The notes under the pieces were generated by a model. It searched no databases. It was given only the letters and a program-made list of their open reading frames with translations, and was not told where the DNA came from. From a phage, in the sequence record NC_101835.1: 64,000 nucleotides of DNA; one strand, given 5' to 3'. The translations under genes and the position numbers were made by a program. Position 1 is the stretch's first letter. Each line of letters starts with the position of its first letter. Of this stretch, positions 3,281 to 18,538 are shown piece after piece.

Positions 3281-4213
3281 ATGAGGAGACTAACAACCGA
3301 AGAGTTTATAGAAAAAGCTCAGACTATACATGGTGACAAATATGATTACTTCAAAGTGGAGTATAAAAACAACAAGACACCTGTGTGTATAATTTGTCCT
3401 GAGCACGGTGAGTTCTGGCAAACCCCTGTGGCACATGCTTTCAAGAAGCATGGTTGTCCAAGGTGTGGTGGGTCAGCGAAAAAGAACACTGAAGAGTTCA
3501 TAAAAGAGGCTATGGTTGTTCATGGGGACAAGTACGATTACTCATTAGTCAAATATGCGAACATGAGAACGCCTGTAAAAATTGTTTGCCCTGAACACGG
3601 TGTGTTTGAACAATACCCTGAAAACCACTTATACCAAAGAAACGGCTGCCCAGAGTGCTATGACTTAAGACGTGGGCAAAGTCAAGCGTTAACCCATAAG
3701 GAGCATGCTGCAATTATCCACAAAGCCAACCCAGACATAGAAATATTAGAGAAAATTGCCAATGATAACACAAAAGTGCAATGTAGGTGCAAAATTTGTG
3801 GGTATAAGTGGTCTGCTAAACCTAATAACCTAAAAAGTGGTCGTGGCTGCTGTAAATGCGCACAAAATGGATTCTTATCTCATGAGTACGGTAAACTCTA
3901 CATTATGGTTGATGACTTAGAAGTGCCAACACTTATGAAAATCGGTGTATGCGTTAAAATGCACAGGAGGAAAAATGAGGTGCTTAACAGTGCTCGTAAA
4001 TCTGGCGCAGGTGTCCACACTCTTCACGTAGTAAAAACGTGGAGCGGATCAACTCAAAACATGGTAGACTTAGAAAAATCTGTGCATAAGGCCTTCAGCA
4101 AGTATAAAATAAACTTTCCTGTAAAATTTGACGGTAGCACTGAGTTTTTCTACTACAGGCCTGAAGTGTTTGACACGGTAGAAGAGGTATACAAGAAGAT
4201 TTGTGGTAAATGA
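3281..4213 (+). CDS. T5orf172 (GIY-YIG superfamily)-like endonuclease with three N-terminal zinc-ribbon repeats
   Basis: Three repeats HGDKYDY..V.Y.N..TPV.I.CP.HG.F.Q.P..H...GCP.C; C-terminal LYIMVDD..KIGV...GSTEFF resembles T5orf172. Confidence 0.5.
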   Translation: MRRLTTEEFIEKAQTIHGDKYDYFKVEYKNNKTPVCIICPEHGEFWQTPVAHAFKKHGCPRCGGSAKKNTEEFIKEAMVVHGDKYDYSLVKYANMRTPVKIVCPEHGVFEQYPENHLYQRNGCPECYDLRRGQSQALTHKEHAAIIHKANPDIEILEKIANDNTKVQCRCKICGYKWSAKPNNLKSGRGCCKCAQNGFLSHEYGKLYIMVDDLEVPTLMKIGVCVKMHRRKNEVLNSARKSGAGVHTLHVVKTWSGSTQNMVDLEKSVHKAFSKYKINFPVKFDGSTEFFYYRPEVFDTVEEVYKKICGK

Positions 4214-6251: not shown

Positions 6252-7181
6252 ATGCGTTTAGGAGAACAGTTATCACGAGAAGAAGTGTTTATCAAGAAAG
6301 CTACTGATAAGCATGGTGACAAGTATGATTACTCCAAAGTTGTATACAAAAACAACACAACACCTGTGAATATAGTGTGCAACAAGTGTGGTACAGTTTT
6401 TAGTAAAACTCCTAAGTCTCACCTTATAGGCGCAGGATGCCCAGATTGTAAGAACAGGGAGTTAAGTGAGAGATTCCGAATGTCTAAGGAGGAGTTTGTA
6501 AAAAGGGCAACAGAACTGCACAAGGGGAAGTATGACTACTCTCTTGTAAAAAGTTTTTCTAACAGGAACGACACTGTTACTATTATTTGCCCCATCCACG
6601 GAGAGTTCAAGCAGACAGTTGCAAATCATTTAGCTGGTGGGTGCTACAAGTGTGGAAAAAGAGCGACAGCTAAAAAGATGAGGAAGTCTAAAGATAGATT
6701 CATAGAGGATGCTACTCAACTACACGGAGACATATATGACTATTCAGAAGTGAAGTATGTGAATACCCACACTCCTGTAACCATTATCTGCAAGTCTTGC
6801 GGGTGTAAGTTTCTTCAACAGCCTGCAAACCACCTGTGCGGTAACGGTTGCCCAGAATGCTCTACTTCAGGATTCAGGCAGAGTACTAAAGAGAGCTGTC
6901 TGTACCTTCTTGTTGATGATCTTACCATTCCCACGGTTATAAAAGTTGGGGTGACTATCAATCTACAGAGCAGACTATACAACATAAGAAGGAACACAAA
7001 TTTTCCTGTTCACGTGCTTAAAGTATTTACTTTCGAGCAGGGGTGTGCTACCATGCAGCTTGAAAAATTGGTGCATAAAGTCTTTGCAGATCGCAACTGC
7101 CACTTCGAAGGTTTCGACGGGGCAACGGAGTGGTTCTGGTACTCTCATGATATTGTAGAGTTTCTAGAAGACAATTGTTGA
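6252..7181 (+). CDS. T5orf172-like endonuclease with three zinc-ribbon repeats (paralog of 3281-4213)
   Basis: Same triple HGDKYDYS...CP.HG...GCP.C repeat; C-terminal LYLLVDD..KVGV...GATEWFWY. Confidence 0.5.
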   Translation: MRLGEQLSREEVFIKKATDKHGDKYDYSKVVYKNNTTPVNIVCNKCGTVFSKTPKSHLIGAGCPDCKNRELSERFRMSKEEFVKRATELHKGKYDYSLVKSFSNRNDTVTIICPIHGEFKQTVANHLAGGCYKCGKRATAKKMRKSKDRFIEDATQLHGDIYDYSEVKYVNTHTPVTIICKSCGCKFLQQPANHLCGNGCPECSTSGFRQSTKESCLYLLVDDLTIPTVIKVGVTINLQSRLYNIRRNTNFPVHVLKVFTFEQGCATMQLEKLVHKVFADRNCHFEGFDGATEWFWYSHDIVEFLEDNC

Positions 7182-8709: not shown

Positions 8710-9243
8710 ATGACTTGTGCTAGAAAACCTGATGAACAACGTAACGCCTACGATGAGTATGTGACACCGGAGTGGTGTGCAGAAGGGCTGTATGACCTTA
8801 TTCCGTTCCCAGAAGACTGGACCTACTTAGAGCCTTGCAGGAATAGTGCCTCAGGTGTGTTCTACTCCCGTATGCCGTTAGGATCTGCATGGGGAGAAAT
8901 ACAAGAAGGTGTTGACTATCTGAATACAGAATACAACCATGTTGACTGTATTATCACCAACCCACCATACAGCCTGGCTCGTGAGTTTGTAGACAAGGCG
9001 TTGAAAGATGCTGACGTAGTTATTATGCTTTTGCGTCTTAATTTTCTGGAAAGCAAAGCCAGATTTGAATGGTGGCTTGATAATGCACCTACTACTGTGA
9101 TCACAATATCTAAGCGTCCATCATTTCAATCAAACGGCAGAACTGACGGGCAAGCATATGCGTATTTTGTGTGGGATAAGAAAAACCGTTTAGACTTGCC
9201 GCCGTTTATGTGGTTGGCACCCCCAGAGGTAGACCTGAAATGA
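8710..9243 (+). CDS. DNA N6-adenine methyltransferase (small phage Dam-like)
   Basis: Catalytic IITNPPYS motif; about 177 aa. Confidence 0.6.
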   Translation: MTCARKPDEQRNAYDEYVTPEWCAEGLYDLIPFPEDWTYLEPCRNSASGVFYSRMPLGSAWGEIQEGVDYLNTEYNHVDCIITNPPYSLAREFVDKALKDADVVIMLLRLNFLESKARFEWWLDNAPTTVITISKRPSFQSNGRTDGQAYAYFVWDKKNRLDLPPFMWLAPPEVDLK

Positions 9244-10232: not shown

Positions 10233-10466
10233 ATGAAAGTTAAATTTCTTACAGATTTAGGGTACCCTTCCTTGGTTGACTGTGTTGGTAAAATTGTGGA
10301 AGCAAAACGGCTATCTGCAAACGAGAATGTTGTCCTGGTTAAAGGGAAGGATTTACTAGCTGCAGGTGCAGAGTCTGGCAGGATCTCTCCTGATTATATG
10401 TATTACCTATCTTTAAGTAATCTGCCAGAGCGAGGCGGTAAAGGCCTTGAAGTTGTGGAGGAGTGA
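10233..10466 (+). CDS. small acidic protein, MKVK...VEVVEE family
   Basis: MKVKFL N-terminus, VKGKDLLAAGA core, C-terminal LEVVEE; paralog of 13792 and 14009. Confidence 0.55.
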   Translation: MKVKFLTDLGYPSLVDCVGKIVEAKRLSANENVVLVKGKDLLAAGAESGRISPDYMYYLSLSNLPERGGKGLEVVEE

Positions 10467-10996
10467 CAGGTATGCTTCTGATTAACTGGGAAGACCTCTA
10501 TGGGGACAAAGACCCTGTTGCGTTTGTTGATCGTAGGTGGAGATACACTGAAGAACAACTGGCGGCAAAAAATTTAACTGCAAAACGCAGAAAGATCATC
10601 CAGTGCAAGTACAAATACGCACAGTTTGCTGCAAAAGTGTCTCCACAAATCGAGAGCTTTGTGCTTAAATTGTATGACGAGTACCTCAAATTCAAATTGG
10701 ATTTTGTGCAGGTGTACCGTGCACAGGTACGACCAGATACCAACATATGTAGATGGAAGGTTGTTTGTGAAGGTAAAGATTTGCCGCTCAGCTTGACAAT
10801 TGAGTGGCGTTATGGGTATCATGAGTGTGGTCTGTATGATATTTGGGATGTCATTGTAGATCCTGCTAAGCATCTGAACACAGAGGAGCTGGAATATATC
10901 AATAAGGTTATTCTCGATATGTTTTTCAGCTACACACATGAAAACTCTGAGAAAGAACGGGATAATTTTCTTGACACCCTCAGCGACCATTTGTAG
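10463..10996 (+). CDS. hypothetical protein
   Basis: Track ORF, overlaps upstream stop. Confidence 0.5.
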   Translation: MTGMLLINWEDLYGDKDPVAFVDRRWRYTEEQLAAKNLTAKRRKIIQCKYKYAQFAAKVSPQIESFVLKLYDEYLKFKLDFVQVYRAQVRPDTNICRWKVVCEGKDLPLSLTIEWRYGYHECGLYDIWDVIVDPAKHLNTEELEYINKVILDMFFSYTHENSEKERDNFLDTLSDHL

Positions 10997-10999
10997 TAT
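10971..10999 (+). promoter_or_regulatory. sigma70-like promoter (TTGACA-17-TAGTAT)
   Basis: Consensus -35 with a reasonable -10, upstream of the 11027 gene. Confidence 0.45.
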
Positions 11000-11026
11000 A
11001 CAATTTAACCTACAAAGGGAGGACCA

Positions 11027-11254
11027 ATGAGTATAAATGTTGTGCTAATAGGTTACCTGGTAATGTCCGTTATAACAGCGGTATTCTTGACAGGTGTATG
11101 CATCGTGTCCAGACGAAGGGTGAAGTTTGATGATTTTATCACCATCATCACTGCTGCACCTTTTTGGCCTGTTGTTATCTTCATCGTAATAATGTGCCTA
11201 GTTGATTACTACAAGAATATCAGGAAGGAGAGTAGGGATGGAGACCGCACCTAA
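11027..11254 (+). CDS. small membrane protein (2 TM)
   Basis: GGGAGG RBS; two hydrophobic helices. Confidence 0.55.
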   Translation: MSINVVLIGYLVMSVITAVFLTGVCIVSRRRVKFDDFITIITAAPFWPVVIFIVIMCLVDYYKNIRKESRDGDRT

Positions 11255-11390
11255 AACTATCTATACTGTTCTTAAAGAGATTGCGTTCTACGCAGATCTT
11301 AGCCAGGCACCTTTATGGGAAAAGAGCATGTATTTAAAATGGTGCGTTAATTTAGGGAGACCTTCCAGTGTTTCAAGCCATGTTTATTGA
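11238..11390 (+). CDS. hypothetical protein
   Basis: ATG at 11238 with GGAAGGAG RBS; track ORF 11202-11390. Confidence 0.4.
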   Translation: METAPKTIYTVLKEIAFYADLSQAPLWEKSMYLKWCVNLGRPSSVSSHVY

Positions 11391-11487
11391 GATGCTATCT
11401 GGGATATTGTTACTGGTAGCCATCTTAGGTGGTGCAGTTCTGATGTATAACTATCTTGAAAAAGGAGACAGCAATGGTAAAAAATAA
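11380..11487 (+). CDS. small hydrophobic peptide (35 aa)
   Basis: MFIEMLSGILLLVAILGGAVLMYNYLEKGDSNGKK; below track cut-off. Confidence 0.3.
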   Translation: MFIEMLSGILLLVAILGGAVLMYNYLEKGDSNGKK

Positions 11488-11659
11488 ATCTTTAGAGCAG
11501 GCTGAAAACCTTCTCCACGAGCTGGTAAAGGAGTGGAAAGTTGAATACTCAGATTTTAATGCACGAGAGGGTGAAGATTATTGGCCTACGGAGCGCTCAG
11601 AGGGCGAATGGTATCAAGATTTTATAGAGTGGTTATATCAGACGTGCGATGAGGGGTGA
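11474..11659 (+). CDS. hypothetical acidic protein
   Basis: ATG at 11474 after AAGGAG; track ORF 11456-11659. Confidence 0.5.
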   Translation: MVKNKSLEQAENLLHELVKEWKVEYSDFNAREGEDYWPTERSEGEWYQDFIEWLYQTCDEG

Positions 11660-12126
11660 CGATGTTTGTTAAATATGTAAAAACGTGCCTCAACAGTCTT
11701 GGCAGAGAGCATTGGTACACCTTGCTTGAAAAAGGGGAAATTTTAACAAAATCTGGAAAGATAACTTTGATACCTCTTGATAGTAAAGGTAAAGACCCGT
11801 CACGACTTGTTATAGATGATTACGTTACAGGTGTGACGTTCGAGGTCTCTGTGGAGAGGTTAATACGCAGAGCTGGCGGCCCTTATGACCGAAGAGAGTA
11901 TGTTTTCGATTCCGTTACAGAGATGGGGGAGCATCCGTCTTTAATGTTCAGGATGGTAATCAGAGATATGAGGTCATCTATAGATAGGATCGTAAAGGAC
12001 ATTAAGGAACCTTTTAGAGTAAAAGTTAAGAAGTTTTTCGATTCTAAGATTAACATACTCGCCGTTGCACTAGGTGTAGTTCAACTTCTGTTAATTTTGC
12101 ACTATTTTGAACTGCTATTTAAGTAG
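11656..12126 (+). CDS. hypothetical protein with C-terminal TM helix
   Basis: Track ORF; hydrophobic C-terminus. Confidence 0.5.
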   Translation: MTMFVKYVKTCLNSLGREHWYTLLEKGEILTKSGKITLIPLDSKGKDPSRLVIDDYVTGVTFEVSVERLIRRAGGPYDRREYVFDSVTEMGEHPSLMFRMVIRDMRSSIDRIVKDIKEPFRVKVKKFFDSKINILAVALGVVQLLLILHYFELLFK

Positions 12127-12188
12127 TAGTTGAGATATGGCACAAAGGATGTGCCATAGTGAAATAAACTAAGAAAGAGGTAGAGAGA

Positions 12189-12536
12189 ATGCCAAAGATT
12201 AAAACGTTATTACTGTGGGTAGCTGTTTTAGCTTTTATAGGGTACTGGACTTGGGAAACTGAATTAAAAGATATCGGATATACCAGTCTTGAGAGCAAGG
12301 CGTGCATTGGCATAACCGATGCGTTCAGGCAAAATGCTATGGATCACGAATGTGTTGATGCAGATATAGATGAGAAACTGTCTAAGGACAAAGATTTTTA
12401 CCATGGGCATGCTTTACTTGATAGTGGTGACACTGTAGAGTTCTGGTCGTGGTTTCGTGAAGATGGAACAATAAAAACAGCAGTAAAGATCTCTAACAAA
12501 GAGTTAATGCTGTTGCAGCAAAAGGAGGCTCAATGA
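12189..12536 (+). CDS. membrane-anchored protein
   Basis: N-terminal signal-anchor (LLLWVAVLAFIGYW); RBS AAGAAAGAGG. Confidence 0.55.
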   Translation: MPKIKTLLLWVAVLAFIGYWTWETELKDIGYTSLESKACIGITDAFRQNAMDHECVDADIDEKLSKDKDFYHGHALLDSGDTVEFWSWFREDGTIKTAVKISNKELMLLQQKEAQ

Positions 12537-12820
12537 TCTGGATATCCTATGCTGATGGCACCATGCTGTATACTGCAGGTACCAGATATGAAGTTCAGGA
12601 GAACGATAAAAAATTTATCGTAAAAACATTTGACAAGGACGACAACCTTTTGCTAGAATTGACTTACAAAGTTGGAGAGGTATCCAATATCCAGTTGGAT
12701 TGTGGTCATAAAGATAATCCACTCAAAAAACCTGGAGTAGGTAAGGCTTCAGAAGAACGTCTGTCTCGTATTGCAGAAAGCGTTTCTCCCCAAAAATCTA
12801 AGAAGAGGACTAGAAAATGA
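12533..12820 (+). CDS. hypothetical protein
   Basis: Track ORF, coupled to neighbours. Confidence 0.5.
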   Translation: MIWISYADGTMLYTAGTRYEVQENDKKFIVKTFDKDDNLLLELTYKVGEVSNIQLDCGHKDNPLKKPGVGKASEERLSRIAESVSPQKSKKRTRK

Positions 12821-13011
12821 AAAACTTACGTTTTAACACTTATTACTACAACACATTGAATGATTTGTATTATATTGTTCGAAGTAAAAGTCCTGAAACA
12901 GTCCTATTCTGCCGCGAACCTTTCAAAGGGGAGGAAGTAGAGTCTGAGATGAATGTTAGCCAGATCACCTCTTTGTTGCTCTCAGGCGCAATGGAAGAAG
13001 CAATATTCTAA
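12817..13011 (+). CDS. hypothetical protein
   Basis: Track ORF, coupled to neighbours. Confidence 0.45.
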   Translation: MKNLRFNTYYYNTLNDLYYIVRSKSPETVLFCREPFKGEEVESEMNVSQITSLLLSGAMEEAIF

Positions 13012-13029
13012 ACCAGGCAGGAGGGTTTT

Positions 13030-13218
13030 ATGAAGCACTATTGCCTGTCTGGTAGAATGGGTGCAGATTGTGATTGGGTTTTCTTAAAACTTGTCAGCAT
13101 TCGAGAGTTCATCCCAGAGGAAGAGCAAGAAAGCGAGCTGATGTCATGGATCAACCATTACGGTAACACTTTTCGGCATGTTAAGGTAGAAGAGTTGCCA
13201 AGCGAGGCTGAATTATGA
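13030..13218 (+). CDS. hypothetical protein
   Basis: Track ORF. Confidence 0.45.
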   Translation: MKHYCLSGRMGADCDWVFLKLVSIREFIPEEEQESELMSWINHYGNTFRHVKVEELPSEAEL

Positions 13219-13511
13219 AACTTTTTGAGTGGTTTAAAAAGTTTAAATATAAAGCTGTAGCCATCGTGCCGTGGTCCATTCAGTGGGTTGATGAAGGTGG
13301 TCTACCGATACCTGGTGACAAAGATACTGGGTACTGGATTATGATGGAGAACGGGTTTGGAAAGCGAAAGTATACGTGCACAAACTCTACTCGATCTGCA
13401 CTTAATAGAGTGCCTGGTTACAAACTTATGGTTGTGTGGAAAATGTCAGGCGTGCCTCCAGCCAATGCTCAATTTCTTACTGACAATCCGACCACGGTAG
13501 AGGGAGATTGA
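13215..13511 (+). CDS. hypothetical protein
   Basis: Track ORF, ATGA overlap with upstream gene. Confidence 0.5.
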   Translation: MKLFEWFKKFKYKAVAIVPWSIQWVDEGGLPIPGDKDTGYWIMMENGFGKRKYTCTNSTRSALNRVPGYKLMVVWKMSGVPPANAQFLTDNPTTVEGD

Positions 13512-13795
13512 TAATGAAAAAGATTAACAGTAGTGAAGTAGAGTTTAAACTTGTCGGAAAAGGCACTTACTGGGAAGTTCGTCAAAAGGTATATTTGTTC
13601 GGTCTTATTCCCTACTGGTCTAAATTCTACTGGGGAGCTAACGAGTTGGGAAGATACGCCACCAAATCAATGGCACTTATTGGTATAGCAGAGTACATTG
13701 CAGCCCGAGACAGGGTTGGAACCACTTATTACTACACTGCTGACGATATTCGTAACAGTGTTTACGTCCCACAACCACCTGATGGAGACCGTTGA
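13508..13795 (+). CDS. hypothetical protein
   Basis: Track ORF, overlaps neighbours. Confidence 0.5.
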   Translation: MIMKKINSSEVEFKLVGKGTYWEVRQKVYLFGLIPYWSKFYWGANELGRYATKSMALIGIAEYIAARDRVGTTYYYTADDIRNSVYVPQPPDGDR

Positions 13796-14019
13796 TGAAA
13801 GTTAAAGTTTTAGATTCAAGCTTCTATATTGGTCAGGAGCCTTTAGTAGGAAAAGTGTTTACTGCTGTCCCTAACGAAGATTACCCTGACCTTTTAAAAA
13901 TAAAAGGAGCAGATCTTATTGCCGCTGGTGCATCTCAAGAATGCTTTGACAGTCAGTGGACCTATAACTTTGCCCTAGGTGAGGATGTAGAGGTAGTGGA
14001 GGACGATCATGAAGGTTAA
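13792..14019 (+). CDS. small acidic protein, MKVK...VEVVE family
   Basis: MMKVKVLDS...IKGADLIAAGA...GEDVEVVED. Confidence 0.55.
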   Translation: MMKVKVLDSSFYIGQEPLVGKVFTAVPNEDYPDLLKIKGADLIAAGASQECFDSQWTYNFALGEDVEVVEDDHEG

Positions 14020-14263
14020 AATTCTTGATTCTAACGTCTACTTGGGACAATCCTTCCTGAATGGAAAGGTCGTTCCTGCGGTATACTTTGAAGGGTTGCC
14101 GTGGGATGATCCTGTGCGGCAACATCACAGTTATGTAGGCCACAACGTGGTGTTTATCTTGGGATCAGACCTGATCACCGCTGGTGCACCTGAATATTAT
14201 TTCGGGGAAGAGTCCTACTATGCCTTTGGGGTAGGGTCAGATGCAGATATTGTAGAGCTGTGA
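14009..14263 (+). CDS. small acidic protein, MKVK family
   Basis: MKVKILDS...GSDLITAGA...SDADIVEL. Confidence 0.55.
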   Translation: MKVKILDSNVYLGQSFLNGKVVPAVYFEGLPWDDPVRQHHSYVGHNVVFILGSDLITAGAPEYYFGEESYYAFGVGSDADIVEL

Positions 14264-14275
14264 TGGGTAACCGTT

Positions 14276-14674
14276 GTGAAAAATAAACTGTTTAAAGTTA
14301 CAATGAAAATTCGCGGGGCTTGGAGCGTAAAGCAAGGGCGTATTCCAGAATTTGAGAAAGACTTCTACGTAGTCTCCACCTCGGAGGAGGCTGCATGCTG
14401 GCAGGCTGGCTATGCCTATGCAAGAACCTGGTACGAAGGATACCAGACTGGGGGCTATGACGGAGAAATTATCAGCAAGGGTGTAGAAGAAATTAATGTG
14501 TTGACAAGTGAAAAAGTTTTTGTTATAGTGCATCCAGATTCCAGAGTGAAGCATTACTGGAATGCCAGAACAAAAACTTGGACACCGTTTGCAGATTCTG
14601 CTACGCCACTTTTAAACCAGAAAGCTCTTGACTCTGCCCCAAGTTATGGGGTTGTTGAAGAAAAGCTAAACTGA
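14276..14674 (+). CDS. hypothetical protein (paralog of 16486-16881)
   Basis: Shared motif V.HP.S...YW.....WTP with the 16486 ORF. Confidence 0.55.
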   Translation: MKNKLFKVTMKIRGAWSVKQGRIPEFEKDFYVVSTSEEAACWQAGYAYARTWYEGYQTGGYDGEIISKGVEEINVLTSEKVFVIVHPDSRVKHYWNARTKTWTPFADSATPLLNQKALDSAPSYGVVEEKLN

Positions 14675-14691
14675 AACAGTGAGGTGTCACC

Positions 14692-14982
14692 ATGATGGAT
14701 TTAATTCTAAATATTGATAACGCAGGAGAGTTTAAAGACGATGGTGTAACAAGCATGGACAAACCCTGCTCTGCTAAGGTTGACTCAAAATGGACCTACA
14801 AGTTTGACGGAGAGATCTTCGCAAATGATGAGAAGGTTGTAGATGCTGCAGCCATTTTAAACGCTCTAGGGTACGACCCTGTGAATTCTTTGATCAAGGA
14901 TCCTGTTGAGTTTGCAGAGTATGTTCGAAAAATGGCAGATCTTGCTGTGGATATTTTAAAAACTATCGACAACAAGCTGTAA
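14692..14982 (+). CDS. hypothetical acidic protein
   Basis: Track ORF. Confidence 0.5.
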   Translation: MMDLILNIDNAGEFKDDGVTSMDKPCSAKVDSKWTYKFDGEIFANDEKVVDAAAILNALGYDPVNSLIKDPVEFAEYVRKMADLAVDILKTIDNKL

Positions 14983-14988
14983 AAACTG

Positions 14989-15017
14989 TTGACACAACGC
15001 TTCAGATTTAGTATCAT
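14989..15017 (+). promoter_or_regulatory. sigma70-like promoter (TTGACA-17-TATCAT)
   Basis: Upstream of the HPF gene. Confidence 0.5.
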
Positions 15018-15066
15018 TGTTTTCAAAGAGAGATAGTTATTCCCTCTTCCTTAAAAGGAACACGTT

Positions 15067-15387
15067 ATGCAAATTGAAATCACTGGCAACAATGTAGAAA
15101 TCACAGAAGGTATGGTATCTTTTATTTCCCGCAAAATGTCCAAGCTGGAGCGTTTACATCCCTCTGTTAACTATGCACGTGTGAGTGTAAAAGTTGAAAA
15201 TGATCACCAGGAAGTTATGGCGTTCATTTTTGACAATTCTGGAAAAGAAGTTATTGCCAAGGCTAAAGGCAGTGATGCTTACGAGGCAACTGACCGTATG
15301 GTAGATGTTGCAGCACGTCAGCTGGCTAAATGCGGTGGAAAGAAAGGTAAGGGGAAAGGCAAAGTAAAGATTGACTTTGGAGAATGA
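15067..15387 (+). CDS. hpf: ribosome hibernation promoting factor (HPF/RaiA family)
   Basis: MQIEITGNNVEITEGM...KLER...V.VKVE closely parallels E. coli HPF N-terminus as I recall it; Lys/Gly-rich tail. Confidence 0.8.
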   Translation: MQIEITGNNVEITEGMVSFISRKMSKLERLHPSVNYARVSVKVENDHQEVMAFIFDNSGKEVIAKAKGSDAYEATDRMVDVAARQLAKCGGKKGKGKGKVKIDFGE

Positions 15388-15396
15388 GGTGCTACA

Positions 15397-15498
15397 ATGG
15401 GTGTGATTAAGAAATTAGTCCCAAATGTAGAGATTGCATGCTTTGAAATTATGTTTGCAATCGCAGTTGTAGTTAATGTGTTAGGTTACGGCTATTAA
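15397..15498 (+). CDS. small hydrophobic peptide (33 aa)
   Basis: MGVIKKLVPNVEIACFEIMFAIAVVVNVLGYGY; below track cut-off. Confidence 0.3.
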   Translation: MGVIKKLVPNVEIACFEIMFAIAVVVNVLGYGY

Positions 15499-15524
15499 TA
15501 TCAAATAATTGAGGAGACCTCTAA

Positions 15525-15794
15525 ATGAAAATTAAATTATTCCAAACTGAGCTGGCAGACAAAAATTGTGGACTGGTTGAAGGCATGATTGTTGAAGCAC
15601 AACCAGTGGACTATATGAAGGTGGTTCGTGATGCCCTAGGTGAAGGTTTTGATCTGATGGAGCCAGCTCTGCGAGAAGATGTTATCGAGATGGCTAAAAA
15701 GCACACACCTGAAGGTTTGGTGGTGTTTGTTGCACCGGGTAACGGAGAAGAGTTGATTGTAACTCCTGATGTGTATGAGATTGTAGAGGAATAA
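15525..15794 (+). CDS. small acidic protein, MKIK...YEIVEE family
   Basis: MKIKLF N-terminus, C-terminal VYEIVEE. Confidence 0.55.
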   Translation: MKIKLFQTELADKNCGLVEGMIVEAQPVDYMKVVRDALGEGFDLMEPALREDVIEMAKKHTPEGLVVFVAPGNGEELIVTPDVYEIVEE

Positions 15795-15885
15795 TCCTGC
15801 TTGGATTAGCATACTTCCTCGCTAAGGAAGATTTGTAATTATTTGTGGGAAAGGAGTCCCAATCTCTTACCAGAGGTGATACTAT

Positions 15886-16149
15886 ATGATTGTTTATTTT
15901 AAAACTTCAGGTGGATACCCTGATTCTCAAAGCTTGATCGGAAAAACGTGCACAGCATACTCACCTCTTGATGAGGAGGTAAGCGATATTTTACGAAATA
16001 TGTATCGGATTGACCCCCAAGAAGCCTTTGATCAAAACCTTGTATTTGTCAAGGGCTCAGATATGAAGTCTTTGGGAGCATTCCCTGAAGCAGATGATGA
16101 TGCCGTTTATTCGTTCATGACTCCTTTTGAAGCTATGGTTGTTGGGTGA
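15886..16149 (+). CDS. small acidic protein (counterpart of 13792 in duplicated module)
   Basis: LIGKTCTAY..VFVKGSDMKSLGA parallels LVGKVFTAV..LKIKGADLIAAGA. Confidence 0.5.
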   Translation: MIVYFKTSGGYPDSQSLIGKTCTAYSPLDEEVSDILRNMYRIDPQEAFDQNLVFVKGSDMKSLGAFPEADDDAVYSFMTPFEAMVVG

Positions 16150-16153
16150 TAAT

Positions 16154-16486
16154 ATGAAAGTACGCTTTATTGGTGAAACAATTCCTGTGCATCTCCGGTC
16201 GCCTGAGGATTCTGCAGATCTTGCATCTCAAAAGGCGAGAGGTTATGATAAGAAAGTAACCTCAACCGATGTAGTGCTTGAGGCTACTAGTCTACCTGAC
16301 CCTGCTGCATTCTTTAATCATTATGGGTACTATTTCAGCAATCTGATGAATATCGGTGAGCTTGTGTTTATTAGTGGTGGAGAAATTGTTAGCAAGCTTG
16401 GCGGCGATCCGGATATCTTTCATGAAACCTGTCCTTTTGCATTTGTGGTAGGTTCAGATGTGGAAGTTATTGAGGAGGTGCGGTAA
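16154..16486 (+). CDS. small acidic protein, MKV...VEVIEE family (counterpart of 14009)
   Basis: In-frame ATG at 16154 (track 16127); C-terminal FVVGSDVEVIEE. Confidence 0.5.
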   Translation: MKVRFIGETIPVHLRSPEDSADLASQKARGYDKKVTSTDVVLEATSLPDPAAFFNHYGYYFSNLMNIGELVFISGGEIVSKLGGDPDIFHETCPFAFVVGSDVEVIEEVR

Positions 16487-16881
16487 TGGTAAGCCTATAC
16501 CGTGTTGAGTATAGCTCAGATACTGTATACAACGTAAGAAGCAAAGATCGCAGCGACAGAGTGCAAGAAATGTATGTTCTTGCCGACAGTCCGTTATCTG
16601 CAGCGTTCAAGGCAGGGGCTCTTGCATCTCGTTGGAAATTTGAAGGTGGATCTTTCTATGAAGAAACCCTTGAAGATTCTGTTGTTATTTCTTCTGTAGA
16701 GGTTTCAGATGACTACGAAGGGAAAAAGTTCGTAATGCGGCACCCACACAGCAACATTGCGTACTACTGGGATGTTCTGAACAACGAGTGGACCCCAGAT
16801 CTTCAGAAGGCTACTGTGCTAACACCGTTTTTGGCAGATAAGTTCCCACCAGAAGGTAATTTATCCGCACTGTTTCAGTAA
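16486..16881 (+). CDS. hypothetical protein (paralog of 14276-14674)
   Basis: FVMRHPHSNIAYYWDVLNNEWTP vs VIVHPDSRVKHYWNARTKTWTP. Confidence 0.55.
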   Translation: MVSLYRVEYSSDTVYNVRSKDRSDRVQEMYVLADSPLSAAFKAGALASRWKFEGGSFYEETLEDSVVISSVEVSDDYEGKKFVMRHPHSNIAYYWDVLNNEWTPDLQKATVLTPFLADKFPPEGNLSALFQ

Positions 16882-16957
16882 TTTTCTTGCACACAGGTGT
16901 TGACAACGCCAACCCTGTGTGAAATAATACCTTCATCTTAATAAGACAGGGGACCGA

Positions 16958-17218
16958 TTGATGAAGATTAAATTGAAAAACCTTGAAACGGCAGAGATTC
17001 AGGACGGTGTTGATTTCCGTTCTAAAGATGGTGACATCTTAGAGGTAAATATTCCAACCTACGAGCTGATTAAAGGTTTTGGCAACGTTCCGGAAGAGGA
17101 TATTACAGAAATTCTTATGATGTTGATTCTTGACGGAACTGTGTTTGTAGGTGAAGGTGAGAACGCTATTGCAATCCCAGGCCATTTTTATGAAGTAGTT
17201 GACGAAGAGGTGCTGTAA
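16958..17218 (+). CDS. small acidic protein, MKIK...YEVVDEE family
   Basis: MMKIKLKN...FYEVVDEEVL. Confidence 0.55.
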   Translation: MMKIKLKNLETAEIQDGVDFRSKDGDILEVNIPTYELIKGFGNVPEEDITEILMMLILDGTVFVGEGENAIAIPGHFYEVVDEEVL

Positions 17219-17569
17219 ATGAAAGTAGAAATTACCGGTTTTGATGTGAATGTGGTTCCGGAAGATATTTTAGCTAAACTTCCAGAAGGTTTTGGTAACG
17301 GCGTTGTGGTGGATGCTGTTCCTCCTACCAAAGACATTCTGCTGCAGTATGGTGTAGCAGAGGAAGATGTCGATAAAGTTCTTACAATGATGGCAATCGA
17401 TCGTGTTGTCGTTGTTAAAGGTCTCGATAATTTTGAGAGTGATCCCTTGATTATTCGTGGAGATGACTACAAAATCATCGATAATGAAGGCCAAGAGTTC
17501 TATGAACCTTGTGCAGAAGATATTCTTAACTTATTACTGGAAGCAGGTACCGAAGAGGAGGACGAATAA
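17219..17569 (+). CDS. small acidic protein
   Basis: MKVEITG N-terminus; very acidic C-terminus. Confidence 0.5.
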   Translation: MKVEITGFDVNVVPEDILAKLPEGFGNGVVVDAVPPTKDILLQYGVAEEDVDKVLTMMAIDRVVVVKGLDNFESDPLIIRGDDYKIIDNEGQEFYEPCAEDILNLLLEAGTEEEDE

Positions 17570-17898
17570 TGAAGATTGACCCGTTACTGAAGGCTCGTGC
17601 AGAAAAAGCGTACACCATTAAGCTGACCAACCTGGTTCCTACTTGTCATCCAGATGTAGGTTGGCCTGAAGGTCTGGTAGAGGGGACTGTAACAGCTGCA
17701 TACCTCCCTAACATCAAATACCTCATGGAAATCTTGGAGCTGGATGAGGAAACGGCAGAAGAGTTCCAGTTGGACATGAAACAAAGTGGGACTCTGGTTA
17801 TTCACGGGTGGTACAATACTAGAGATGCAGAAGACCCTCTGGTAACTTCTAATCTGGCATATGAAATCTTAGGGCCTTTGAACCTGGAGGAAGACTAA
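17569..17898 (+). CDS. hypothetical acidic protein
   Basis: Track ORF, ATGA coupling. Confidence 0.5.
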   Translation: MKIDPLLKARAEKAYTIKLTNLVPTCHPDVGWPEGLVEGTVTAAYLPNIKYLMEILELDEETAEEFQLDMKQSGTLVIHGWYNTRDAEDPLVTSNLAYEILGPLNLEED

Positions 17899-18185
17899 TG
17901 AAAGATCTGGTTAAGATTAAGATTAAAGATACCAATGGAGAACTCAGTCATTTTGGAATTAATGATGGTGACGAGCTGATCGCACACCTGCCTACCAAGG
18001 AGGTTGTAAGCAAAGCAGTTGCCGGAGAAGAAGCTGCAATGCAGGCTGCAGGTGTGGATGAAAACTATGTAGCTATGTGCATGTGCCGAGATCAGGTTGT
18101 TCTGTATAAAGCGTATCGACCAAACGGAGCCACGGAGTGGCTTGTATTCCGACCCGAAGGATATGAAATCTTAGAGGCACTATGA
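17898..18185 (+). CDS. hypothetical protein
   Basis: Track ORF, ATGA coupling. Confidence 0.5.
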   Translation: MKDLVKIKIKDTNGELSHFGINDGDELIAHLPTKEVVSKAVAGEEAAMQAAGVDENYVAMCMCRDQVVLYKAYRPNGATEWLVFRPEGYEILEAL

Positions 18186-18265
18186 TAAATCTTGCCAAGG
18201 TTGCAACGGCACTGTTAGTTATTTGCTGGTCTGTAACCTTAACACTGTGTCTTGTATTTCAGTGA
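18182..18265 (+). CDS. small hydrophobic peptide (27 aa)
   Basis: MINLAKVATALLVICWSVTLTLCLVFQ; ATGA overlap with upstream stop. Confidence 0.3.
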   Translation: MINLAKVATALLVICWSVTLTLCLVFQ

Positions 18266-18274
18266 GGTGCTTGT

Positions 18275-18538
18275 ATGAACATCCTGATGTGGGTTATAGC
18301 AGTGGCGTTTGTTGCATGTTTTTGCTGCTGGGTTGCGGTGAGGATTTCTGTAGCTACCCTTCGGAAGTTGGGGTTCTCAGAATGGGATATTAATATCCTT
18401 TCTTTTCGCAATGAAACAATCTCAGCCGCCCTGCTTTGTAAGAAATTTAAGTGGGAACCTTGTGAGGTCATGAGCTATCTAAGAACAGGCGATATCCCTG
18501 AAAGATTTAAAAAAGTTCTTGACGGCAAGGATAAATGA
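18275..18538 (+). CDS. small membrane protein
   Basis: N-terminal TM (ILMWVIAVAFVACFCCWVAV). Confidence 0.5.
   Translation: MNILMWVIAVAFVACFCCWVAVRISVATLRKLGFSEWDINILSFRNETISAALLCKKFKWEPCEVMSYLRTGDIPERFKKVLDGKDK

Follow-up and report, generated by a model that had tools for sequence, protein, structure and literature searches.

Three genus-restricted families of small phage proteins, and the likely block duplication behind two of them, in an rV5-like Escherichia phage

How does a run of short phage genes without assigned function come to hold so many related members, and what might their products do? The question is raised by a 64,000-nucleotide (nt) stretch of phage DNA (NC_101835.1; hereafter the window), in which a preliminary description reported a three-gene module, occurring twice between 13792 and 16881 with its genes matching one for one, and placed further small acidic proteins, at 10233, 15525, 16958 and 17219, in a single wider family of diversifying host-interaction factors. 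The window comes from an rV5-like Escherichia phage of the genus Vequintavirus, with ~99% identity to Murica. All the open reading frames (ORFs) of that description are present where it put them, and the peptide matches it quoted recur in the translations. We name genes by their first nucleotide; the ORF that opens with TTG at 13792 is here gene 13795, its ATG being the likelier start, that at 16958 is here 16961, and the proposed start of 16154 stands. We favor, as moderately probable when taken whole, a reading in which the genes form three old families restricted to the genus, a block of two of these families was duplicated, and the products are small early accessory binders with one partner per paralog.

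By sequence, the genes sort into three families (table 1): family I with five copies (10233, 13795, 14009, 15886, and 16154), family II with another five (15525, 16961, 17219, 17569, and 17898), four of which form a tandem array, and family III with two copies of ~130 amino acids (aa), 14276 and 16486. Similarity was measured pairwise, by Smith-Waterman alignment against composition-preserving shuffles (p), and between profiles, one per ortholog group, built from the genus variants and two divergent relatives, with all 231 profile pairs compared (P). The two family III proteins match over their full length (p=2.6e-10; P=3.7e-17). Within family I, 13795 matches 14009 (p=7e-15) and 10233 (p=3.5e-9; P=3e-15), and the proposed kinship of 10233 with this pair is borne out by their common PHROGs family as well. 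The match of 14009 to 16154 (p=2.6e-6; P=1.2e-6) is confined to the C-terminal ~40 residues, and 13795 matches 16154 with the same profile value. The pairwise similarity of 13795 and 15886 is weak (p=1e-3) and gains with profiles (P=5e-6), 15886 being about equally close to 10233, 13795, and 14009 (P=3e-6 to 7e-6). Overall, family I profile links range from 4.5e-17 to 7e-6, except for 15886/16154 (2e-3) and 10233/16154 (2.2e-3). In family II, seven of the ten profile pairs are linked (P=9e-8 to 1.6e-4), the weak ones being 15525/17569, 16961/17569, and 15525/17219 (P=0.012-0.021).

The PHROGs collection recovers much of this grouping. End-to-end matches to phrog_5009 were found for 10233 (E=8e-36), 13795 (E=2e-38), and 14009 (E=4e-32), and to phrog_7379 for both 14276 (E=4e-74) and 16486 (E=2e-66); 15886 reaches phrog_5009 weakly (1e-4), and 16154, with no match at the 0.1 cut-off, is joined to it by profile comparison. 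PHROGs itself places 15886 (phrog_13920) and 16154 (phrog_13661) in singleton families, while 10233 weakly touches phrog_8603 and phrog_13367. Public clustering thus already captures most of the paralogy, in families (phrog_5009 and phrog_7379) that carry no assigned function. Short proteins of biased composition might resemble one another by chance, and the weak pairwise value of 13795 and 15886 would suit such an account; yet shuffles that keep the composition give p down to 7e-15, profile P reaches 4e-17, PHROGs groups these proteins independently, and an independent structural model superposes at a template modelling (TM) score of 0.81 (see below), so that chance or composition without any real duplication is refuted, and we give it practically no weight. 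The expanded families of small, mostly acidic proteins foreseen in the preliminary description are therefore real, and mostly significant in the all-against-all profile comparison by which it was to be judged. Its single wider family divides, 15525, 16961, and 17219 forming with 17569 and 17898 a family separable by sequence from family I. Acidity holds for most members, including all of families I and II (isoelectric point, pI, 4.05-5.4), and fails for 14276 (pI 7.8). Searches of Pfam, NCBIfam, and PDB sequences with all members and family profiles returned nothing meaningful. We rejected a family III profile match to the designed Kelch-like protein SAKe6 (PDB) as a repeat-summation artefact: each of its six identical repeats contributes ~5 bits (individual E>100), a single-blade match is not significant, and only the summed score looks so. 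The 645-2655-aa repeat proteins matched in the exhaustive family III search described below were set aside on the same grounds.

For family I, the relationship extends to predicted structure. AlphaFold2, given 13795 with 13 family I sequences, returned a mean predicted local distance difference test (pLDDT) score of 90.7 and a predicted TM score of 0.78, all five models reaching at least 87. The model has five strands, with a short helix after strand 3, arranged as a partly open β-barrel of SH3 topology, and we are confident in predicting a free-standing SH3/KOW-like five-stranded barrel for the family; the KOW resemblance is structural only, Pfam and NCBIfam giving no match to the KOW sequence motif. 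Small barrels of this SH3-like kind are known from SH3 domains, the KOW domains of Spt5/NusG and of ribosomal proteins such as uL24, PsaE, and the C-terminal domain of retroviral integrase. A Foldseek search of the PDB with the 13795 model produced no significant match, and in BFVD the model matches many small uncharacterized phage proteins. Among them, an 87-aa protein of Shigella phage CM1 (Vequintavirus), which we equate with the 15886 ortholog on length and source phage and not on sequence, superposes at TM 0.81, which lends independent support to the weakest sequence link in family I. Other BFVD proteins, from RB49, Merlin, Sf20, CS01, ZCKP1, and further phages, share the mini-barrel fold and size (TM 0.6-0.88) at 13-37% identity; they have no known function, sequence relatedness is not demonstrable, and either remote homology or convergence on a small barrel could explain the likeness. 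Structure prediction, proposed earlier as a check, was thus informative for family I and poor for family III, whose model from a three-sequence alignment (pLDDT 56) was not used in the fold search.

Could families I and II nonetheless be one superfamily, ten genes encoding SH3-like barrels, into which family II would have inserted a helical segment after strand 2 and before strand 3? The terminal motifs on which the single wider family had been based are real and rare: an MK(V/I)(K/R/E) start together with a hydrophobic-acidic last strand of the YE(V/I)VEE type occurs in 6 of 46 genes here, in both families, and in none of 355 size-matched ORFs from other genera, the regular expressions having been composed after these sequences were seen. 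In a global profile alignment strands 1, 2, 3, and 5 fall in register, the insertions of 15886 and 16154 lie where family II has its extra segment, and the two families are similar in size and charge and adjoin one another. Nevertheless, no significant link emerged from pairwise, hidden Markov model (HMM), or profile-profile comparison, the last with richer profiles and in both local and global mode. The best pair, 10233/15525, gives P=0.0067 over 31 N-terminal residues (0.0097 for an unrelated control pair), and whole-family profiles reach P=0.007-0.011, a level matched by the best unrelated controls (0.013 and 0.018 in the whole-family comparison). Besides, HMM searches never cross from one family to the other, and the BFVD structural matches include no identifiable family II ortholog. 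A common superfamily is accordingly a real possibility, to which we give a little less than even weight.

If the families are real, how did the repeated order arise? Both family III genes are directly preceded by two family I genes, an arrangement with a chance of ~3e-5 under random gene order, for which block duplication is the natural explanation. Together with the full-length family III match, this bears out the earlier claim of a diverged duplicated block, and modules A (13795-14674) and B (15886-16881) likely descend from an old block duplication. The gene-for-gene correspondence claimed at the same time stands for the third gene of each module (14276/16486) and not for the first two, which match across positions equally well; a neighbor-joining tree unites 13795 and 14009 with 78% bootstrap, away from their positional counterparts. 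Between the modules, the only DNA similarity left is a 20/23-nt trace. In the simplest history, an ancestral block of one or more family I genes followed by a family III gene would have been duplicated long ago to give both modules, with family I expanding afterwards, 13795 and 14009 being a later tandem pair and 10233 a dispersed copy. One may suppose instead that a true I-I-III block was duplicated gene for gene and that gene conversion within module A later erased the positional signal, as could be read from the identical order of the modules, the recombination of 13795 and 14009 that occurs in nature (see below), and the FxVGSDxxhhE C-terminus common to 14009 and 16154, where the DNA trace survives. 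However, 13795 and 14009 share just ~40% identity, and 79% at the DNA level over 33 nt, so that any conversion must be ancient, 16154 matches both equally, and the tree favors duplication within module A. We therefore regard conversion as unlikely, at perhaps one chance in a handful, and retain block duplication followed by tandem duplication of family I.

The families appear to be restricted to the genus, and absent from the other Vequintavirinae genera examined. A search of 5.8 billion proteins found only near-identical orthologs of the same genus, and family HMMs run on the 40-kb syntenic loci of six phages of the genera Seunavirus, Mydovirus, and Certrevirus (PVP-SE1, FENT2, KB57, AV124, CR3, and phiTE) gave no hit above reversed-sequence decoys. 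When 1.84 billion representatives were searched exhaustively with HMMER, the family III profile picked up two real, full-length distant homologs, both on contigs that are syntenic rV5-like metagenomic genomes: P0056, on contig L009, is of A type (38% identity to 14276, 27% to 16486), and P0057, on contig L010, is of B type (40% to 16486, 27% to 14276). The split between A and B types is thus older than these lineages. In L010, with 69% identity in ClpP, every family I and family II gene (five of each) has an ortholog, as has the B-type family III gene, and the A type is missing; since each paralog has its own ortholog in so distant a relative, the paralogs are old. L009 (ClpP 62%) has a 10233-like gene, the A-type family III gene amid unrelated ORFs, and four family II genes, and lacks the 13795/14009 pair, module B, and the hibernation factor gene that lies between the modules in the window. 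Copy number, a further check proposed earlier, is thus five and five in L010 and lower in L009, with a single family III gene in each. These contents indicate that families I and III are separable and that the region is a mosaic of gene turnover. ORFs beside the family III genes of the two contigs were considered as degenerate family members and rejected on comparison. Two of the contigs' ORFs (L009 9367-9642 and L010 8068-8358), alike by eye and without a counterpart in the window, occupy the slot next to the module A genes, further evidence of gene replacement there. L010 also has an extra ORF with PF27050 (Phage_P22_Y8K6) between its B-type family III gene and its family II array (10467-10763), again without a window counterpart, and the early region of L009 holds an inserted IS605 OrfB/TnpB-type (Cas12f-like) gene (13532-14644).

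Natural variants within the genus illustrate the same turnover at closer range. In EduardKellenberger (Bas59), which was isolated and is grown on E. coli K-12, the equivalent of window positions 10869-14588 is missing, and the 10463 N-terminus is fused to the last ~30 residues of 14276; since the phage is viable, module A as a whole is dispensable. In its record (MZ501061.1), this fusion of a 10463 homolog and the C-terminus of a 14276 homolog lies at 8719-9186 and is annotated as a putative glycosidase, a label that its composition suggests is probably wrong. Two further proteins (P0010 and P0011) are hybrids, derived from 13795 in their N-terminal half and from 14009 in their C-terminal half, and in two genomes (L013 and L014) the pair gives way to one gene of 70 aa. 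The crossover falls within a 29-nt stretch common to both genes that encodes DLIAAGA, which identifies 13910-13938 and 14166-14194, by comparison of the sequences, as the site of unequal recombination. Another protein, P0004, is a 14276::14692 fusion. With copies lost, fused, or deleted in single lineages, these behave as accessory genes. Each paralog nevertheless appears, from its substitution pattern, to be a conserved gene under purifying selection. Across eight genomes of the genus (the window and seven others), the gene-wide ratio of non-synonymous to synonymous polymorphism (pN/pS), based on modest counts, is 0.10-0.14 in family I, 0.06-0.17 in family II, and 0.05-0.06 in family III, no higher than in neighboring genes (0.09-0.35). 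There is no sign of gene-wide positive selection on the paralogs in this set, and the "diversifying" part of the earlier proposal gives way to old and conserved copies. Among the neighbors, 14692-14982 stands out: its pN/pS of 0.35 is unsurpassed in the region, it shows 14-17 non-synonymous and 6-13 synonymous differences to several members of the genus, and it evolves faster than any family gene.

What such proteins do must be approached indirectly, the literature searched holding no functional or expression data on these genes. Intergenic gaps are rare here, and two of them (14989-15017 and 16900-16928) each match the sigma70 consensus at 11 of 12 positions; these near-consensus promoters support the earlier assignment to an early region and suggest that the genes would be expressed early from host-type promoters. 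The products may be small, non-enzymatic, stoichiometric binders of host or host-defence macromolecules, each paralog with its own partner, and the close packing of family I and III genes in module B would favor co-expression and possibly a complex; given that the two families can occur apart, such a partnership, if any, is not obligatory. The overlaps of start and stop codons at 13795/14009, 16154/16486, 17219/17569, and 17569/17898 are, as sequence features, compatible with coupled translation. From their dispensability, their turnover between lineages, and the binding-type, non-enzymatic fold predicted, it is reasonable to consider these proteins putative host-interaction factors. Several observations weigh against such a reading: promoter-like sites overall are not clearly enriched (36 found, 26.4 +/- 5.1 expected), the separate occurrence of families I and III in L009 and L010 weakens the notion of a functional three-gene unit, the low pN/pS lacks the signature of an arms race, and a non-enzymatic binder type is supported for family I only, the family III model being poor.

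More specific roles can also be envisaged. The low pI and strong net negative charge of most members, and their location in an early-type region, recall the DNA mimics Ocr, ArdA, and Arn, which block restriction or other DNA-binding defences. Families I and II share the strong acidity of these proteins; yet family I is a compact SH3-like barrel rather than an elongated fold with a DNA-like array of charges, no Ocr/ArdA/Arn-type structure is among the matches listed, and 14276 is not acidic. In addition, Vequintavirinae are reported to be "exceptionally susceptible" to restriction-modification systems (PMC8594841), the opposite of the protection that such mimics afford. On fold and published sensitivity we rejected this idea, which we hold to be very improbable. 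The family I fold and the neighboring hibernation factor suggest another scenario, in which family I, and perhaps II, would be KOW/SH3 barrel mimics docking on the ribosome, NusG/NusE, or RNA polymerase alongside the phage hibernation factor, each paralog with a family III partner addressing a different host component or variant; we rate this as a long shot. Early accessory binders with separate partners remain our preferred reading.

Large phage genomes commonly hold multi-copy families of small early or accessory genes; these are typically tandem, short, overlapping, and promoter-proximal, are not needed for laboratory growth, and come and go between close relatives. The present families differ from this general picture in that their copies are old and individually conserved (pN/pS ~0.1) rather than recently amplified, and in the repetition of a two-family block. 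Given how common paralogous small accessory genes are in large phages, and how much of the grouping public clustering already holds, the finding is well supported yet unremarkable for a big phage genome. Neither the repeated module nor the fold, nor the duplication's age or the natural variants, came up in the papers searched. The finding is of value chiefly for the fold assignment and for the natural mutants: twelve genes without assigned function become three defined families, one with a confident fold, the duplication history is dated, and the loss of module A in Bas59, the fusion of 13795 with 14009, and lineages without module B make function testable with little engineering. Among coliphages, the rV5-like ones are some of the most frequently isolated, and cocktails for phage therapy and biocontrol make use of them. 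Should the proteins turn out to act as binders in host takeover or counter-defence, they would offer a compact system for how small phage binders diversify their targets; should no phenotype appear, they would be a further example of conserved accessory genes.

Table 1. Family genes, recombination segments, and promoter-like sites in the window
Feature	Coordinates	Strand	Evidence
Family I, dispersed copy, 77 aa, MKVK...LEVVEE	10233..10466	+	phrog_5009 E=8e-36; profile P=3e-15 to 13795; orthologs in L009, L010
Family I, module A gene 1, 74 aa from ATG (ORF opens TTG 13792), SH3-like barrel predicted	13795..14019	+	
Crossover segment encoding conserved DLIAAGA motif; partner 14166-14194	13910..13938	+	hybrid genes; 29-nt overlap at junction
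Family I, module A gene 2, 84 aa, 11-nt overlap with gene 1	14009..14263	+	P=4.5e-17 to 13795
Partner crossover segment within 14009	14166..14194	+	
Family III, A-type, 132 aa, pI 7.8	14276..14674	+	phrog_7379 E=4e-74; P=3.7e-17 to 16486
Sigma70-like promoter TTGACA-17-TATCAT, intergenic, before hibernation factor (HPF) gene	14989..15017	+	consensus match only
Family II, 89 aa, MKIK...YEIVEE	15525..15794	+	P=9e-8 to 16961; orthologs in L009, L010
Family I, module B gene 1, 87 aa, most divergent member	15886..16149	+	P=3e-6 to 7e-6 to 10233, 13795, 14009; phrog_5009 E=1e-4
Family I, module B gene 2, 110 aa, strands 2 and 3 separated by a long insertion	16154..16486	+	P=1.2e-6 to 13795, 14009, C-terminal ~40 aa
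Family III, B-type, 131 aa, pI 4.7; start overlaps 16154 stop by 1 nt	16486..16881	+	phrog_7379 E=2e-66
Sigma70-like promoter TTGACA-17-TG-AATAAT, before family II array	16900..16928	+	consensus match only
Family II, 85 aa (also numbered 16958)	16961..17218	+	P=1.3e-7 to 17219
Family II, 116 aa, net charge -21, acidic tail	17219..17569	+	
Family II, 109 aa, missed by the preliminary description	17569..17898	+	P=3e-6 to 17219
Family II, 95 aa, missed by the preliminary description	17898..18185	+	P=5e-6 to 15525

From ~7600 to ~20900 all genes lie on the + strand, with PhoH, ClpP-like protease, and DNA methyltransferase genes upstream, and roughly 45 consecutive small genes of the region have no assigned function; the window holds no tRNA genes. 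About a hundred rV5-like Escherichia phages (among them Murica, SophiaRose, and slur16) match positions 13000-18500 at 98-99.4% identity, and Murica annotates each ORF discussed here as a hypothetical protein and gives each a ribosome-binding site. The sole named gene nearby in the Murica annotation is a RaiA/HPF homolog, a short phage-encoded ribosome hibernation factor (15067-15387; PF02482, E=4e-15) that lies between modules A and B behind a promoter-like site, and is present in L010. Some 18 MG0656xx records labelled "Campylobacter phage", with C. jejuni as host, share ~98-99% identity with rV5-like coliphages, and their host labels are likely contaminants or mislabels. Farther upstream, a paralogous pair of genes at 3281-4213 and 6252-7181 (38% identity) encodes T5orf172/GIY-YIG-like and treble-clef zinc-finger domains, homing endonuclease-like in kind; Murica has no such genes at these positions, and they have the look of mobile insertions next to the nrdG and PhoH genes.

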